Source: an uncultured Bacilli bacterium | GTDB taxonomy: Bacteria > Bacillota_I > Bacilli_A > RF39 > UBA660 | Reading direction: 5' to 3' | Assembly (NCBI GenBank): GCA_947625635.1 | Contig: CANQPA010000001.1 | Location: 3,199-67,198 of the forward strand | DNA length: 64,000 bases | In this document: positions 4,322 to 50,580 of the stretch, piece after piece | Layout of the letters: the number at the start of each line of letters is the position of its first letter | Numbering within the stretch: position 1 is the stretch's first letter | Translations under genes and position numbers: made by a program | The notes under the pieces: model-generated | Seen by the model: the letters and a program-made list of their open reading frames with translations, nothing else | Databases searched by the model: none | What the model was told of the DNA's origin: nothing

Positions 4322-4560
4322 ACATATCACCAAAAATATTATAACATTTATTTAAAAAATAATATATAAAAAGACGGTTTGTCATAATACTATGTTTTAG
4401 AAAATAATATTCATAATATTACTGATAATTTTAAAACCATTGTGAAATATATAGATCAACTTCTAATACGCCAAAATTAAAGCATTAAAAAAAGAAGAAG
4501 AATCTTTTTCTTTTTTGATACACAATATTTTGAATACATATTAATATGTACTTAGCTTTT

Positions 4561-5400
4561 TTATTCTAATATATGCTCTTCTAAATTTGTTATTTTATAT
4601 CCCTTAGATTTTATATAAATTATTATAGTAGATAATTCTTTTTTTACTCGCTGGTTTACTTTTAAAGATAATAAAGCACCAGATTCTAATTTAGTTTTAA
4701 TATCTTGAAGTGGAGTATTTTCTGAAATAACCGTTGGTCTTATTGTATAATTTCCTTTTACTTTACATGAATTAATATTATCATCATTATCTTCTAAACC
4801 ATAACAAAATCCGTTTTTTTGCTTGTTTATTTTCTTTAAAACCATGTCTATCCAATCAAAATCTGGATCTGTATAATTATTCATAAATATATTTACATTA
4901 TGACCTTTTTTTATCATTTCCTCTATTAAATTATTATTACCAGTAAACCACGTTGTATCAACAAAAAAAGTCGCCTTTATATTATAATTATTTATAATAG
5001 TTAAAATTTCATTTATATCATTATCCGAACTTACCATAAATATTAAACTCACCATTCTTTTAGATGGATTTCCCTTTATGATATATTTATCAAGGTTATC
5101 TGCTAAACTAATATCAGGTAATGTATAATCATATACATATAAATTTTCATCATAATAACCATTATTTTTCATATTTTTATAACTTTTATTTATATTTACC
5201 TTCCTACTACTTATTCCAGGTATTATTGTATTTCCTTCTATCATTGCATTCTTGTTTTCTAATTTATATTCATCTTTTTCCGTTTTTATTCTTATCATTA
5301 TCTCATCCATATTATTTACAACAGTTGCAGTTTTTTCCGTTACAAAAAAACTAAAACATACTAAACTAATTAGGCCTACAATTTGAAATATTTTTTTCAT
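4561..5400 (-). CDS. secreted or membrane-anchored polysaccharide-deacetylase-like protein with degenerate catalytic motifs
   Basis: N-terminal signal/anchor. ...RMVSLIFMVSSDNDINEILTIINNYNIKATFFV...IEEMIKKGHNV... resembles the NodB fold core (KATFFV, GHxV). I cannot find the TFDDG and HxxxH motifs. Confidence 0.4.
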   Translation of the reverse strand: MKKIFQIVGLISLVCFSFFVTEKTATVVNNMDEIMIRIKTEKDEYKLENKNAMIEGNTIIPGISSRKVNINKSYKNMKNNGYYDENLYVYDYTLPDISLADNLDKYIIKGNPSKRMVSLIFMVSSDNDINEILTIINNYNIKATFFVDTTWFTGNNNLIEEMIKKGHNVNIFMNNYTDPDFDWIDMVLKKINKQKNGFCYGLEDNDDNINSCKVKGNYTIRPTVISENTPLQDIKTKLESGALLSLKVNQRVKKELSTIIIYIKSKGYKITNLEEHILE

Positions 5401-13850: not shown

Positions 13851-13965
13851 TTAATCACCCTATTTATTATATCACTTTTTATGTATAAATAAAATATTAG
13901 TTGTTTTTTTAATTAATATGATGTAAAAACTTATACATAATATAAACGTTAAATACAATGAATTG

Positions 13966-14003
13966 TAAAAAAATATTAGTCATACTTAGACTAATATTTT
14001 TTA
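13966..14003 (-). terminator. intrinsic terminator after the surface-protein gene
   Basis: AATATTAGTC-N6-GACTAATATT stem flanked by A-run and T-run, so it could act in both directions. Confidence 0.65.
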
Positions 14004-14045
14004 CTATCTTTACGAATTTTTATTAAACAATTATCTATTTCAATA

Positions 14046-15344
14046 TTATTTATTATAAGCTTTTTTTCTTGATACAACTACTAATACTGATATTAAAGCA
14101 GCTAAACTAACAACACCTAATCCAATATATAATCCTATATTATCAAGTGTATTAGGAGCATCAACAGTATCAGCTTTAACCTCAGATGCTTTAACATATA
14201 TTGTAGCGTTTTCTTCAAGTACTTCCTCTAAATTGAAAGCTTCTTTATATTCGTCATCTTTATAGTATCCTTCTATTTTGATATTATCTTCTAGCATACT
14301 TTCTTCAAATGTTTTTAATGCTGCTTTTAATATTTCATTTGCATTTTCTTTTGGTATAGTGAAAGTAACATCTCCACTTTCAGATCCATCATCTAAAACA
14401 AGTGTTACATATAAAATTTCTTCTGATGCAGGATAAACATCACCTTTTATAGTATTACCCGTAGACATTATAGTATTAGAAGCTTCAGTGTCTTCTCCAA
14501 GATTAAATACTACACTATTTGCATTTGTATTATCAAGTGTTGAATTTGAAATAATAAATGTGTTTGATGTTGATTTAGTATATTCACTTCCAATTAAAAT
14601 CAAATCTTCTTTATTATTACTTGTTGCATTAGTTACTATAGAATTTTCCTCAATAACTAAACTTGATTCAGTTTGATCTCCAAATACTACTGTTCCATAA
14701 TCATTATCAGCATTTGCTGGATATATATTATGTCCTGTAAGTGTTGATGATTTAACAGTTACACTATTTTCTCTAGCTGCAACTTTACCATTTGATACAT
14801 CTATTGCAGAATATCCGTGTATATCACTTCCAGTAACTCTTAAAGTATTGTTTGATCCTTTTACCCAAATACCATATTTAGCATTTATTGTTGTTCCAGT
14901 TACATCAATAGTTGTATTTCCATTAGCAAGAATTCCTACAGTAGAGTCTCCAAAATCAACGTTACTTTTATCGTTAAAGTAAATTTCACTATCACTAATA
15001 TCTAATGTTGCTCCATCTTCAACTGTTACTATAGTAGCCTCTCCATCAGTTGATTTTATTGTTACTCCTCTAATAGTTAGTTTTTTTCCAGCTGCAACAG
15101 TAATAGTACCTTCTATAATTGATCCGCCTTCTTCTGCACCTATAATCTTTACATCTTTATCGATTGTAATATCTTCAGTATATGTTCCTGCAGCAAGGTT
15201 TAGTGTAGAATCACCATCCCCTAGTTCACCTAGTTTAGTAGCTATACTATCACCACTATTAAGATCTAAAGCCTTAACATTAGTAAATGTAAGAGCTAAT
15301 AAAAGTGATAAAAACGCAAAAACCCCTAATTTAATTTTTTTCAT
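14046..15344 (-). CDS. cell-surface protein with parallel beta-helix-type repeats and a C-terminal anchor
   Basis: Start moved to the ATG at 15344 (GGAGGATTGTT SD). Signal peptide MKKIKLGVFAFLSLLLALTFTNVKA. Repetitive short beta-strand units follow (TIRGVTIKS, LDISDSEIYF, TIDVTGTTINA, LRVTGSDIHG, VTVKSSTLTG). C-terminus is DAPNT + hydrophobic helix + RKKAYNK tail. Confidence 0.7.
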   Translation of the reverse strand: MKKIKLGVFAFLSLLLALTFTNVKALDLNSGDSIATKLGELGDGDSTLNLAAGTYTEDITIDKDVKIIGAEEGGSIIEGTITVAAGKKLTIRGVTIKSTDGEATIVTVEDGATLDISDSEIYFNDKSNVDFGDSTVGILANGNTTIDVTGTTINAKYGIWVKGSNNTLRVTGSDIHGYSAIDVSNGKVAARENSVTVKSSTLTGHNIYPANADNDYGTVVFGDQTESSLVIEENSIVTNATSNNKEDLILIGSEYTKSTSNTFIISNSTLDNTNANSVVFNLGEDTEASNTIMSTGNTIKGDVYPASEEILYVTLVLDDGSESGDVTFTIPKENANEILKAALKTFEESMLEDNIKIEGYYKDDEYKEAFNLEEVLEENATIYVKASEVKADTVDAPNTLDNIGLYIGLGVVSLAALISVLVVVSRKKAYNK

Positions 15345-15371
15345 AACAATCCTCCTTATCATTACAATTAA

Positions 15372-15401
15372 ATTGTACCATACCCCCCCCCAGTCTGTCA
15401 A
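15372..15401 (-). promoter_or_regulatory. promoter P1: TTGACA - 18 nt (contains G9) - TGG-TACAAT
   Basis: Minus strand reads TTGACA GACT GGGGGGGGG TATGG TACAAT. The C9 run on the plus strand is at 15383-15391. The promoter is 27 nt upstream of the ATG at 15344. Confidence 0.65.
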
Positions 15402-15432
15402 TAGAAAAAATTTTTAAAAATTTTAGTTTACA

Positions 15433-15813
15433 CTAAAATTCACATATATTACCTCTTTGATAGTCTATTTTAAATTTACTAAATAAGAAACTTTCTTCTA
15501 TACTATAATTTTCTATAGTTATATTTTTTAATCTATCATAATAATATACACTACCATTACAAGATATTTTTTCATATTTATTCATAATATCGTCAAGTTC
15601 TTTTTTTACAATTTTTGCACCTCTTAATGTTTTAAATGTTGCAGAGTATGTGCAACACTCGCTTTCTACAACTGACATTTTTGGTACCTCAAGTTCTATA
15701 AGTGATGCTCCCATAAAAATTTTTTTACTTCCCATAGGAGCTAATTTTATAACTAATAAAGAAATTATTAGAACAAACAAAATTGAAATAACTATTATTA
15801 AATTCTTTTTCAT
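15433..15813 (-). CDS. small membrane-anchored or secreted protein, unknown function
   Basis: 126 aa with an N-terminal hydrophobic helix and several Cys. No family recognised. Confidence 0.45.
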   Translation of the reverse strand: MKKNLIIVISILFVLIISLLVIKLAPMGSKKIFMGASLIELEVPKMSVVESECCTYSATFKTLRGAKIVKKELDDIMNKYEKISCNGSVYYYDRLKNITIENYSIEESFLFSKFKIDYQRGNICEF

Positions 15814-24620: not shown

Positions 24621-25298
24621 TTAATTACAATCATCTAAAGTTAAAGGAATTTTATAGAATACATCTTTATTATCTATTGTTTTGGCTTCTATTTCTAGAT
24701 ATAATGAGTTTTCTAAATACATTTTACAAGATTTAGAAAAATGTTCAACATTAAAACTTACTTTTTTTAAGAATTGTTTAAGCGTTATTTCACCATTATA
24801 CGAAAAACTATCTATCTTTGTTTTAATATCTTTTTGATCTTCATATAAAGTACAGTTTATTTTTTTATATGTTGCATTATTGTTTTCTCCACAATATGTA
24901 ATATTTGATATATAAATAGATGTTTTGGAATTATTGTAGGCAATAGATCCAAAAAGATTAAAATCATCACAGGTCGTTGATAATGCCTTAAAACTAAAAT
25001 CATCAGATTTATAATTAAACATTACAATTAATGAAAGTACTAATAAACAAACTACTGAAATTAATATTACTAAAGTTTTATTAATTTTATTTTTTTTAAT
25101 TTCTAAAAGACTATTCATATCTATATTATAATCATTACATATCTGTTTTAATATTGATATATCTGGAATATTTTTACCATTTTCCCACTTACTTACTGCT
25201 TGATATGTAACTTTATATCTGTTTGCGAACTCTTGTTGCGTTAAACCATTTTTCTTTCTTATTTCTTTGATTAATTTACCAATATTTTCTTGATTCAT
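24621..25298 (-). CDS. single-pass membrane-tethered XRE-family HTH regulator
   Basis: HTH IRKKNGLTQQEFANRYKVTYQAVSKWENG, one TM (aa about 75-95) and a Cys-containing extracytoplasmic domain. Confidence 0.7.
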   Translation of the reverse strand: MNQENIGKLIKEIRKKNGLTQQEFANRYKVTYQAVSKWENGKNIPDISILKQICNDYNIDMNSLLEIKKNKINKTLVILISVVCLLVLSLIVMFNYKSDDFSFKALSTTCDDFNLFGSIAYNNSKTSIYISNITYCGENNNATYKKINCTLYEDQKDIKTKIDSFSYNGEITLKQFLKKVSFNVEHFSKSCKMYLENSLYLEIEAKTIDNKDVFYKIPLTLDDCN

Positions 25299-25382: not shown

Positions 25383-25411
25383 ATTATATTCCAAAAATAA
25401 TTAATTGTCAA
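25383..25411 (-). promoter_or_regulatory. consensus sigma-A promoter for the 24621-25298 regulator
   Basis: TTGACA (25411-25406), 17 nt, TATAAT (25388-25383). Confidence 0.55.
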
Positions 25412-25536: not shown

Positions 25537-25737
25537 TTAATCTTTAAATATTTTCATCAATCTATCTTTAGCATCTGCTACTAGTAACCTTTGCTGATCC
25601 AAATAATCGCTTTCATTTAAAGTACCCTCTTCATAATTGGGATAATCATATGATATACCATCAATCATGTCTATAATCGCTAATAAACTTCGTATTTCTA
25701 AATTTAATTCATTTTTTTTAGACTCTATATCATTCAT
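25537..25737 (-). CDS. small acidic protein (66 aa), unknown function
   Basis: ATG overlaps the stop of the upstream gene (TAATG). Helical and acidic. No family recognised. Confidence 0.5.
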   Translation of the reverse strand: MNDIESKKNELNLEIRSLLAIIDMIDGISYDYPNYEEGTLNESDYLDQQRLLVADAKDRLMKIFKD

Positions 25738-27392
25738 TATATCTGTCTTCCTTTTTCTTCATCCATAGTATATTCAATTGGTATATCTATATCAGATATT
25801 CCATATTTTTTCGAGGCAAAATCTGAAAATTTCATCGCATAACTTTTATCTTTTAATGAAGCAAAATATTTTAAATATTCTTTATACACCGTGTGTGCTT
25901 GTTGTTCTCTCTTTTTTTCTATTTTTATTAAATCTTTAGCATATGGTGCTACTTTTTCTATATAATTAGAAAACGGAATTTTACCTAGCTCAGTTTTCTT
26001 TAATTTTTCTATTAAATATTTTTGATATAATGAACTTCTAACTATTTGAATATCCTCTGGTATTTCGATTTGTCCTATACTCTCAATTTCTACTTCCTTA
26101 TCAGCTTCATCGTATGATGGAGTATCTACTTCAGGTTTTGAATATTCATTTGTTTCTTCTGTTGATTGTATACCGGTTTTAAGTGTAGATTGTTGTAAAC
26201 CGTCAGCACTATATTTTTCTTGAACTTCTTTACTTGTTTTTTCTATATATTTATAATATTCAGGCTTATTTAATTCTGGATATTGTTTTAATATTTCATT
26301 CATCTCATATTTTATTTTAAAAATTCTTTTACTATCAATATTAGGATTTAACTCTTCTATCTCCTTGTACAAGGACCTTAACCTTTTTTCATTCATCATT
26401 ATATTTTCAATTCCTAAACTTTGATAATTTTTATCAGCTTTTTCTTGCAGTTTATATAAATCCGCTTCTTTTTTTTCTGCCAGTTCTTGTAAGCCTTGAT
26501 ACATTTCAGAATTAGATATATATGTACTTTTAAAGCTCTCTAAAACTTCTTTAATATACCATATATGTCTTGATAAAAAGAAAATATCTTTATATTGCTT
26601 TTCTAATTGTAAAAATTCACTTGATTTTTTTGAATTATAATTTTTATTGAAATATTCTAAATATTGGTATCTGCTATTTATTTCAGCTTCTTCACAAAAA
26701 ACAATACCTATTTCTAATTTATTACTATTAATCTTTTTTCGAGCTTCTTTTATTCTTTCAACATCAACGCCCAATCCACCTAAATGATGTCTATACTCAT
26801 CTTTTAATTCAATTGATAAATTAGAATACAAATTATCAATGTCATAACCAGTATCTGATAAATAAAAATCAATATCTGCAGATCCTTTAACGATTGTTTT
26901 AGCTTTTGACATTTTTAAAAGTGTTTTTTTCATAGAACTTTGTATTTTTAAAGATTTATCTCTTAATAATTCATTTGATTTAAAATATGATTTTTTATAA
27001 TGATTATTATATAAATCTATTACTTGTGATTCTTTACTAGAGTCATTATTAAGAACAGATATAAAATAATCAAGACTGCTATATAATAATGCTTCTTCAG
27101 TTATTTCCTCTAATTCATGCAATCCATCTTTCAATTGTTCAATTACGTCCCTTACTTCTATATATTGTCTTCTCTTTATTTTAAGTTCTTTTTCTACTTC
27201 ACTAATTCTTTTTTTTCTTTCTCTATCAGTTAATATTTTATTAGACTTGAATGAATAAATTCCATGATATTCGTCAATTCCAGATTCTAGATTATCTAAA
27301 CGTTTCTCTAATTTTATAACTTCGTCTTCATAATACTTAGTATTAAATCCAGTTATTATTTCTTTAGCGTTTCGTTTTTTTTCATAGTTCAT
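25737..27392 (-). CDS. large cytoplasmic coiled-coil-rich protein (551 aa), unknown function
   Basis: Strong SD (ATGGAGGTATAAA). No signal peptide or TM. Long heptad-like K/E-rich stretches. No family recognised. Confidence 0.6.
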   Translation of the reverse strand: MNYEKKRNAKEIITGFNTKYYEDEVIKLEKRLDNLESGIDEYHGIYSFKSNKILTDRERKKRISEVEKELKIKRRQYIEVRDVIEQLKDGLHELEEITEEALLYSSLDYFISVLNNDSSKESQVIDLYNNHYKKSYFKSNELLRDKSLKIQSSMKKTLLKMSKAKTIVKGSADIDFYLSDTGYDIDNLYSNLSIELKDEYRHHLGGLGVDVERIKEARKKINSNKLEIGIVFCEEAEINSRYQYLEYFNKNYNSKKSSEFLQLEKQYKDIFFLSRHIWYIKEVLESFKSTYISNSEMYQGLQELAEKKEADLYKLQEKADKNYQSLGIENIMMNEKRLRSLYKEIEELNPNIDSKRIFKIKYEMNEILKQYPELNKPEYYKYIEKTSKEVQEKYSADGLQQSTLKTGIQSTEETNEYSKPEVDTPSYDEADKEVEIESIGQIEIPEDIQIVRSSLYQKYLIEKLKKTELGKIPFSNYIEKVAPYAKDLIKIEKKREQQAHTVYKEYLKYFASLKDKSYAMKFSDFASKKYGISDIDIPIEYTMDEEKGRQI

Positions 27393-27515
27393 TTTATACC
27401 TCCATTAACTCACTATTTAAAAAGGAAAATACATAATTTAATTTTTCTTCAGTTTCTATCTCTATAAATTATATTTTATCATTATCTATAAAACCCTCCA
27501 TTTTATAACAATTTT

Positions 27516-27546
27516 ATTATATCATTACCCCCCCCCTACCTGTCAA
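27516..27546 (-). promoter_or_regulatory. promoter P2: TTGACA - 19 nt (contains G9) - TGA-TATAAT
   Basis: Minus strand reads TTGACA GGTA GGGGGGGGG TAATGA TATAAT. The C9 run on the plus strand is at 27528-27536. It lies about 120 nt upstream of the ATG at 27392. Confidence 0.65.
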
Positions 27547-39383: not shown

Positions 39384-39583
39384 AAAAAAAACTCAAATCC
39401 CTAAGGACGAGTTTTACCCGCGGTACCACCTTATTTTATTAAAAATACACTCAATACTATAACGCGTTACCGAAAATATTTTCATATCCACATCTAGAGT
39501 GATCTATATATAACTTCGGCATTCGTTTCCATCAACCACGAACTTTCTATAGCCTAATTTACATACCGTCTCTATCATTTGTT
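39384..39583 (-). promoter_or_regulatory. T-box leader, Ile specifier (AUC)
   Basis: Minus strand has the stem I AGAGA box (AUGAUAGAGACGG) and a distal GGUUGAUGGAAAC loop. The specifier context is AUAGAUCACUCUAGA (AUC + A). T-box AAGGUGGUACCGCGGG is followed by terminator AAACUCGUCCUUAGGGAUUUGAGUUU + U8. Confidence 0.8.
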
Positions 39584-40072
39584 TTAAAAATCTACTTTTT
39601 CAATGTCATCAACCATATCAAGTTGAGCTTGTATTAAACCTCTGAGTTTACGTTTAAAAATATTTATATTTCTCTTAAGCATTTCTGCTTCCATTTCTGT
39701 TTTCTCTGCTTTAAGTAAAGATTCGTTTACAATACGGCTGGCATTTCGTTTAGCATCTTCTAAAATTATTTCACTTTCCCTATGGGCTGTTGATTTAATT
39801 TGATCAGAAGTTTTCTGGGCCATCATAATAGCTCTATTTAAAGTTCCTTCCATACGTTCATAATGAGCAAGTTTCTCATGCACATTACGTGTATTAGCTA
39901 AAGCTTTTTCCAACTCTTCTATCCTTTTATCCTTTAGAATAATCTCCTTATTTTTATTCTTATTATCTTCAATCATTCTTTCAACCTGTTTGATAATTTG
40001 ATCTAAAAATCTATCGACCTCTTCGGGACTATAATTTTTAAAAGTCCTATTATTATCCATATTCATAAACAT
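39584..40072 (-). CDS. divIVA: cell-division protein DivIVA
   Basis: FKNYSPEEVDRFLDQIIKQVE N-terminal domain plus coiled coil. Conserved sepF-divIVA-ileS synteny. Confidence 0.8.
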   Translation of the reverse strand: MFMNMDNNRTFKNYSPEEVDRFLDQIIKQVERMIEDNKNKNKEIILKDKRIEELEKALANTRNVHEKLAHYERMEGTLNRAIMMAQKTSDQIKSTAHRESEIILEDAKRNASRIVNESLLKAEKTEMEAEMLKRNINIFKRKLRGLIQAQLDMVDDIEKVDF

Positions 40073-50503: not shown

Positions 50504-50580
50504 GTCTCAGTAGCTCAGCTGGATAGAGCATCGCCCTTCTAAGGCGAGTGTCAGGGGTTCGAATCCCTTCTGGGACACCA
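50504..50580 (+). tRNA. tRNA-Arg (anticodon TCT) with encoded CCA
   Basis: Cloverleaf: acceptor GTCTCAG/CTGGGAC, D arm GCTC-AGCTGGATA-GAGC, anticodon stem TCGCC/GGCGA with loop CTTCTAA, T arm AGGGG-TTCGAAT-CCCTT, ACCA end. Confidence 0.9.

Follow-up and report, generated by a model that had tools for sequence, protein, structure and literature searches.

In this study, two homopolymers of nine guanines (G9) were analyzed in a stretch of DNA from an uncultured Bacilli bacterium, which is called the window here at its full length of 64,000 nucleotides (nt). Both tracts lie between the -35 and -10 elements of minus-strand promoters, and both are candidate length switches for the genes downstream. 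Promoter 1 occupies positions 15401-15372 and was read directly as TTGACA-GACT-GGGGGGGGG-TATGG-TACAAT, in which the GGGGGGGGG slot is the G9 tract. The -35 hexamer TTGACA (15396-15401) is perfect and is followed by GACT (15395-15392), by the tract itself (15383-15391; C9 on the plus strand) and by TATGG (15382-15378), which contains the TG dinucleotide at 15380-15379. The -10 hexamer TACAAT (15377-15372) matches the consensus at five of six positions. The tract starts 4 nt past the -35 and stops 5 nt ahead of the -10, and the whole spacer is 18 nt long. The TGn-extended -10, TGG-TACAAT (15372-15380), was found both by direct reading and by a consensus promoter scan that allowed spacers of 16-18 nt, in which promoter 1 scored 11/12 with the TG and ranked second across a 16-kb region. 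The -10 lies 27 nt from the ATG at 15344, with a Shine-Dalgarno sequence, AAGGAGG (15351-15357, minus strand), in between, 6 nt ahead of that ATG. The perfect -35, the TGn-extended -10 and the 18-nt spacer, half of it G, had been described in an earlier sequence-only reading of the window, and its coordinates and letters matched ours exactly.

The gene downstream of promoter 1 (14046-15344, minus strand) encodes a protein of 432 amino acids (aa) with an N-terminal signal-like segment, a beta-helix and a C-terminal transmembrane (TM) helix (residues 405-425, Kyte-Doolittle 2.6). No match to this protein was found in Pfam, PHROG or PADLOC, and its homologues numbered only five among 5.8 billion proteins. 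All five begin at the equivalent MKK, in which M1, K2 and K3 are invariant. The AlphaFold2 (AF2) model of the 432-aa protein (predicted local distance difference test, pLDDT, 80; predicted template-modelling score, pTM, 0.79) showed a beta-solenoid at residues 24-330 and, after it, a small alpha/beta domain, then a disordered linker and finally the TM helix. Moreover, the top Foldseek matches of the model were all right-handed parallel beta-helices (pectin methylesterases, PL6 lyases and phage tailspikes), with E-values down to 4e-4 and TM-scores of 0.3-0.4. At the level of the fold class, the label of beta-helix surface protein is a reasonable one for this model. The signal peptide, the C-terminal anchor and the beta-helix that had been assigned to the gene from the letters agreed with the open reading frame (ORF), the TM helix and the AF2 and Foldseek results. 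With its predicted signal peptide, beta-helix and TM anchor, the cargo of locus 1 fits the surface determinants of contingency loci.

The beta-helix gene together with its G9 promoter (13851-15432) was absent in the closest relatives (L009, L010, L011 and L021; related loci are denoted by L numbers), in which the 126-aa gene and the lipoprotein gene lie only ~450-620 nt apart. As judged from these sequences, the beta-helix cassette is a species-specific gain or loss adjoining murD. In the 126-aa gene itself, which lies 5' of promoter 1 (15433-15813), in-frame deletions were observed in two low-coverage contigs (27 nt in L008, at 330-350, and ~21 nt in L007, at 690-700). These deletions may be genuine differences between strains or may have arisen in assembly at short direct repeats.

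Promoter 2 (27546-27516, minus strand) reads TTGACA-GGTA-GGGGGGGGG-TAATGA-TATAAT, again with G9 in the GGGGGGGGG slot. By direct reading, both its -35, TTGACA (27541-27546), and its -10, TATAAT (27521-27516), are perfect, the -10 is TGn-extended (TGA-TATAAT, 27516-27524), and the tract (27528-27536) lies 4 nt past the -35, after GGTA, and 6 nt ahead of the -10. Its spacer is 19 nt long, and promoter 2 was missing from the list of the consensus scan because this length exceeds the 16-18 nt allowed there. The sequence-only reading had placed the second tract at the same position in the same type of promoter; this was borne out for the G9 4 nt after a perfect -35 and for the extended -10, but not for the spacer, which is 19 nt rather than 18 nt.

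The first target of promoter 2 is a gene for an all-helical soluble protein of 551 aa (25737-27392, minus strand), and the second gene in the presumed operon, of 66 aa, overlaps it (25537-25737, minus strand). No hydrophobic, TM or signal segment was detected in either protein. Nothing reliable was obtained for the two proteins from Pfam, PHROGs, PADLOC, a PDB sequence search or a family profile, and the sole match in those function searches was a weak coiled-coil similarity to DUF3732 (E = 1.3e-3). The AF2 model of the 551-aa protein was poor (pLDDT 55). This protein belongs to a small unannotated family with 59 representatives at 50 % identity, in which conservation is highest over the C-terminal ~100 residues and no variation occurs at Y456, Y506, Y509, K516 or F522. 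The cargo of promoter 2 apparently is cytoplasmic and appears to have no surface or host-interaction role. The sequence-only reading had likened the tracts to phase switches of surface genes in other bacteria; this suits the predicted surface protein of locus 1 but not locus 2, where the proteins are soluble and carry neither signal nor TM segment.

The GC content of the window is 25.8 %, and the only G/C runs of at least 5 nt in it were four C5 and two C9 (plus strand), in agreement with the sequence-only reading, in which just two G/C homopolymers above 5 nt were counted. At a per-base G frequency of 0.136-0.157, the number of G9 runs expected in 64 kb is far below 0.01. Run lengths were counted in a pool of the window and 80 related loci (912 kb) and compared with a geometric expectation. 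The observed and expected numbers of G/C runs were 584 and 466 for 4 nt, 83 and 63 for 5 nt, 9 and 8.6 for 6 nt, 1 and 1.2 for 7 nt, and 1 and 0.16 for 8 nt, and at 9-10 nt five runs were observed against 0.025 expected, an excess of ~200-fold. Furthermore, all five runs of 9-10 nt sit in the G orientation between TTGAC(A/T/G) and a TAT... -10 region. Therefore, the excess and the exclusive placement in promoter spacers indicated that these runs are a distinct, selected sequence class and not the tail of a compositional distribution. The tract offset differs among the promoters (0, 4 or 9 nt from the -35 and 0 to 8 nt from the -10), which fits a pure length module rather than an operator of fixed geometry. 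Both G9 tracts of the window lie between the -35 and the -10 and reach the length at which slippage becomes possible, ~7-8 units or more. The density of tracts was about 5 per Mb in the sampled loci, with 2 in the 64-kb window. The only other G runs of at least 7 nt in the related loci, a G7 (L088:465-471, minus strand) and a G8 (L064:2141-2148), lie outside promoter spacers; they resemble oversized Shine-Dalgarno sequences, 5-7 nt ahead of an ATG.

Homologues of the beta-helix gene from three other species (38-40 % identical) have promoters without a G tract, which lie 20-30 nt ahead of the Shine-Dalgarno sequence. The promoter at L002 reads TTGAAA-17-TGT-TACAAT at the equivalent place, that at L111 reads TTGACA-17-TATAAT, and that at L004 is AT-rich and sigma-70-like. 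The presence of ordinary, tract-free promoters at the equivalent place of homologous genes argues that the -35 and -10 of promoter 1 are correctly assigned. In addition, the 17-nt spacers of the tract-free orthologues show that the G9 tract is a derived insertion that lengthened a spacer of 17 nt.

Tract promoters were also found in related species. These read TTGACT-9 nt-G10-TATGAT at L057, TTGACA-9 nt-G10-TA at L068, where the contig ends, and TTGAC-G10-TATTATAG-TATAAT at L074, and all tracts are followed by TA. The genes downstream at L057 and L074 encode signal-peptide proteins, as do the genes downstream of all tract promoters except promoter 2; proteins of this kind are usual cargo at contingency loci. 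The L057 protein (4390-4959) is one of the small secreted proteins of a large family with 128 database hits and several copies per genome, in which the signal peptide and the N-terminal 55 residues are near-invariant (…YKA(S/T)DV(V/I)YNASDGTSMNV..ALNELY) and the C-terminal parts are unrelated. The family shares a conserved promoter cassette, AACAAAATTTCT..CTTGA..TTTACGYCT-Gn-TAT. Every member for which upstream DNA was retrieved carries the tract, and adjacent copies each own one (L089: 169 and 1501).

Loci of this family with their flanks were collected from related human-gut species (L057 and L089-L110), and two members, P0049 and P0040, were retrieved from many human-gut samples. At the P0049 locus (TTGATT-TTTACGCCT-Gn-TATAAT), the tract was G9 in one, G10 in four, G11 in four and G12 in one of ten samples. 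Besides the tract, only two single-nucleotide polymorphisms and contig-end noise were seen over 2,352 aligned columns, and an A8 run at the same locus, which served as a control, was invariant. At the P0040 locus (TTGACT-TTTACGTCT-Gn-TATGAT), ten samples gave G9 once, G10 seven times and G11 twice, and at both loci the tract was the sole site with variable indels. Moreover, a third paralogue directly upstream of P0049 differed between two samples (G9 and G10) and varied independently of its neighbour. Length polymorphism of this kind with stable flanks is the signature of simple-sequence contingency loci, and these human-gut species gave the strongest support for a switch in the present analysis.

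For the window's own species, exact look-up of the two downstream proteins returned no record, and other samples of locus 1 were reached through the neighbouring genes. The proteins of the window are on record only from one NCBI contig (79,879 bp) and a few short, low-coverage ENA contigs. Scans of JGI metagenomes with a gapped promoter 1 pattern and with the family-wide promoter pattern gave no match in either case. Promoter 1 was recovered in three samples (the window, L008 and L001), and the tract was G9 in all three. The window and L008 read GACT-G9, and L001 reads GAT-G9, in which the C at 15393 is lost and the spacer is 17 nt. The loss of 1 nt beside the tract in L001 showed that the spacer length does vary in the window's species. 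All of these contigs have ~2x coverage. The tract of promoter 2 is known from the window sequence alone, and the two contigs on which the 66-aa gene was found end short of promoter 2. Tract 2 from another sample is probably present on a 933-nt ENA contig that encodes P0143, a protein matching residues 1-257 of the 551-aa protein at 99 % identity. The slipped-strand spacing switch that had been proposed from the letters, together with the comparison of tract length among relatives suggested with it, found support in the polymorphism of the related human-gut species, but tract 1 was constant at G9 in the three samples of the window's species.

With good confidence, we regard the G9 tracts as slippage-driven promoter-spacer switches, acting on/off or in a graded manner. 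In the proposed mechanism, the G9 run would be a hypermutable homopolymer within a promoter spacer of the housekeeping-sigma class (sigma-70/sigma-A type), and slipped-strand mispairing at replication would add or remove one G. The -35/-10 distance would shift among 17, 18 and 19 nt at promoter 1, for which the arithmetic of the sequence-only reading holds, and among 18, 19 and 20 nt at promoter 2, and each shift would change promoter strength. A clonal population would always be mixed, its cells differing on/off or by degrees in transcription of the downstream genes. The target of promoter 1 would be a membrane-anchored, surface-exposed beta-helix protein, and that of promoter 2 a two-gene operon whose products apparently are cytoplasmic. 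We infer variation at both tracts of the window, a transcription start just past the -10 and an effect of tract length on expression.

Several observations weigh against such a switch. No variation in tract length was seen at tract 1 in the three samples of the window's species, and the products of the promoter 2 operon, which have neither a signal peptide nor a TM segment, are an atypical cargo. The spacers of the relatives are 18-21 nt long with a mode of 19 nt and never have the canonical 17 nt; low expression may prevail in most cells, or the G tract may shift the optimum. Furthermore, the polymorphic contigs are of low coverage (~2-6x, as given in the contig names), and Illumina sequencing makes more indel errors at long G runs, so that some of the +/-1 differences in tract length may be technical.

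Part of these observations would be accounted for if the G tract were a static element, such as a rigid GC-rich spacer or a regulator site, and the length differences among assemblies were noise. The G9 found in 3/3 samples at tract 1, the low coverage of the variable contigs in related species and the lack of 17-nt spacers there all fit this explanation, and the TA after every tract is a weak hint of a motif. However, the varying tract offsets (0, 4 and 9 nt from the -35, and 0 to 8 nt from the -10) are hard to square with a fixed operator or structure. Moreover, variation was seen at three loci in several independent studies and was confined to the tract, whereas the A8 run and 2.3 kb of flank were stable, and the orthologous promoters appear to function without any G tract. 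Runs of G9-G12 are also intrinsically slippage-prone, as is known of simple-sequence repeats in general, and would be so whatever other role they had. A static element is thus considered unlikely. An artefact or chance origin, by poly-G calls of two-colour Illumina sequencing, mis-assembly or base composition, has hardly any probability. Some contigs do end at or beside a tract (L068 and L098), and the first 40 nt of L001, just 5' of promoter 1, mismatch the window. Nevertheless, the tracts are internal with unique sequence on both sides, recur in independent samples and studies and never differ in orientation or promoter context, the five runs stand against ~0.025 expected by chance, and a repeat of heterogeneous length would itself break contigs at the tract. 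It was observed in general that contigs tend to break or turn unreliable at or just 5' of G tracts (L001:1-45, where the first 40-45 nt mismatch the window; L068:1714-1725, which ends 2 nt past a G10; L098:1-20, with garbled bases and a G12), which is consistent with length heterogeneity or with poor read quality.

A translational switch was also considered for tract 1, which lies inside an in-frame 451-aa ORF with a TTG start (15401-14046), so that slippage would frameshift an N-terminal extension of the beta-helix protein. This intragenic reading was rejected as very improbable: the strong AAGGAGG stands 6 nt ahead of the ATG at 15344, where the signal-like sequence begins, and 5/5 homologues start at the MKK with M1, K2 and K3 invariant. 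In addition, L001 carries its 1-nt deletion inside the putative extension and the gene is still called from the same ATG, the extension would put 19 residues ahead of the signal peptide, and tract 2 lies outside any ORF.

The predicted 5' leader of promoter 2 is ~117 nt long (27393-27509, minus strand). On the same strand, it contains a Shine-Dalgarno sequence, GGAGGG (27499-27494), which lies 11 nt ahead of a mini-ORF of six codons (27482-27462; ATG ATA AAA TAT AAT TTA TAG, MIKYNL*). The RNA fold of this leader was not significant (z = +1.04) and the leader matched no Rfam family, and a riboswitch or structured leader 3' of promoter 2 was rejected on these grounds. A terminator-like hairpin follows the 66-aa gene (25491-25470, from a terminator scan). 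Directly past this terminator lies a perfect consensus promoter, TTGACA-17-TATAAT (12/12; 25383-25411, minus strand), and the gene 3' of it (24621-25298) encodes an HTH_3 (XRE-type) protein of 225 aa that has a membrane segment. The only Rfam and tRNA features in the window are a T-box leader (39400-39587, minus strand, 96.5 bits) and a tRNA-Arg(TCT) (50504-50580).

A prophage or mobile-element origin of the tract loci was also considered and rejected. The PHROG search gave no matches, and the related tract loci sit among mraY, murD and ileS; the P0040 locus adjoins transposase genes. A scan of viral contigs for TTGACA-N4-G9-TA gave five unrelated matches. Two viral contigs of IMG/VR (L113:3615-3635 and L114:2219-2239; 37 % GC) share TTGACA-GGCT-G9-TAGCA-AATAAT, which has the layout of the window promoters with an 18-nt spacer and is otherwise unrelated to them in sequence.

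The host lineage was approached through MurD, which is encoded 2 kb 3' of promoter 1. Its best relatives, at 75-80 % identity, come from metagenome-assembled genomes (MAGs) of the gut of rabbit, roe deer, sheep and goat, and more distant ones were deposited as uncultured Bacilli, uncultured Tenericutes, Mollicutes bacterium, Candidatus Coprosoma, Candidatus Pelethosoma and Clostridium sp. CAG:1000. We take these relatives to be members of the GTDB order RF39. RF39 is an uncultured gut lineage with small genomes of 1.5-1.9 Mb, which neighbours the Mycoplasmatales and mostly keeps peptidoglycan (PMC7301438, PMC10868615), and some remaining capacity for sporulation has been predicted for it (PMC10868615). 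The window encodes MreC/D and a translocase of the FtsK/SpoIIIE type; a match to a sporulation-type deacetylase stayed below the threshold. The frame of spore-forming Bacillota, in which the tracts had previously been discussed, is imprecise, and the nearest relatives are apparently RF39-like, beside the Mycoplasmatales.

To our knowledge, nearly all that is established about repeat-driven phase variation comes from cultured pathogens. A literature search yielded no link between phase variation and either RF39 or related uncultured Bacilli. The evidence leans slightly towards a genome-wide set of phase-variable genes with poly-G spacers in RF39-like gut Bacilli, with many G9-G12 promoters per genome. 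If this is true, the set would control the large secreted family with its hypervariable C-terminus, species-specific surface proteins, among them the beta-helix protein of the window, and also non-surface operons, and the 551-aa/66-aa pair may be a phase-variable intracellular system. It would represent a multi-locus simple-sequence contingency system in non-pathogenic, uncultured commensals, and it would bear on the question raised in a review, in which multi-locus phase variation appears restricted to pathogens, possibly through database bias (PMC11868660). Promoters of the classical spacer-switch type recur, with polymorphism from sample to sample, in small-genome uncultured Bacilli of the rabbit, ruminant, chicken and human gut. 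A signature of TTGAC...G(9 or more)...TAnnnT at ~26 % GC could be used to list phase-variable surface proteins from metagenomes. Conversely, MAG consensus sequences and gene calls at such tracts may hide population heterogeneity, as illustrated by the spurious 451-aa ORF with a TTG start.

The mechanism is a known one, which belongs to the class of phase variation by promoter-spacer repeats, and the lineage and the gene families are new for it. Promoter-spacer repeat switches are classical in mycoplasmas. In Neisseria meningitidis, the length of a spacer tract sets high, intermediate or no expression of outer-surface proteins, with poly-G at porA and poly-C at opc and fetA. The tracts of the present study resemble these in that a G/C homopolymer between the -35 and the -10 sets their spacing; they differ in that Neisseria is a Gram-negative pathogen with known optimal states, whereas the consensus states here are 18-19 nt. 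The genome of Treponema pallidum has ~53 % GC, and its tprE/G/J, tprL and tp0126 genes are, along with Neisseria porA and opc, nearest to the present tracts in base and position; the repeated base is likewise G, the tracts are 7-11 or 12 long (mostly 9-10), and sigma-70-type promoters and surface-protein genes are involved. In contrast to this spirochaete pathogen, the present case concerns uncultured gut Bacilli of 26 % GC, in which G9 is a far stronger compositional outlier and the system is known from sequence alone.

In T. pallidum, promoter poly-G tracts of 7-11 nt have been reported to control transcription (PMC7864442). At tp0126, where the tract lies between the -35 and the -10 as in the window, transcription was highest at the tract length that gives a -35/-10 distance of 17 nt (PMC7864442). 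At tprL, most fragments carried G9, G8 gave a higher reporter signal and G10 was near background; the majority length in Treponema is thus often one of low expression (PMC7864442). Within the Bacillota, the abstract of a study of Streptococcus pyogenes reports that a 1-nt indel in an intergenic homopolymer (Spy1336/R28-Spy1337) alters transcript levels (PMC7098570). This case is similar as a homopolymer indel in a regulatory region, but it concerns a single locus in a pathogen rather than a multi-locus system, and its abstract describes no G tract in a -35/-10 spacer.

The mycoplasma systems represent the closest phylogenetic neighbourhood, since the RF39 clade neighbours the Mycoplasmatales (PMC7301438), and they also come nearest in how the gene family is organized. 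In vlp of Mycoplasma hyorhinis (poly-A) and in Vmm of M. mycoides and Vmc of M. capricolum (TA repeats), the repeat lies in the -35/-10 spacer, as it does here. Unlike in Vlp, the repeat of the present loci is poly-G and the proteins have no lipobox cysteine; the signal-like segments of the window protein and of the related secreted family end in ...VKA/LD or ...LYA/A. Moreover, the window contains no member of the L057 secreted family, and the genes behind its two tract promoters are single-copy and unrelated to each other. For these reasons, the window's loci are not of the Vlp type in the strict sense. Combinatorial phase variation of Vlp is cited in a passage of the above review (PMC11868660). 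In the related human-gut species (L057, L089-L110), the Vlp arrangement has its counterpart in a multigene family whose promoter, signal peptide and N-terminus are conserved and whose C-terminus is variable, with a tract for each gene, which would allow combinatorial expression.

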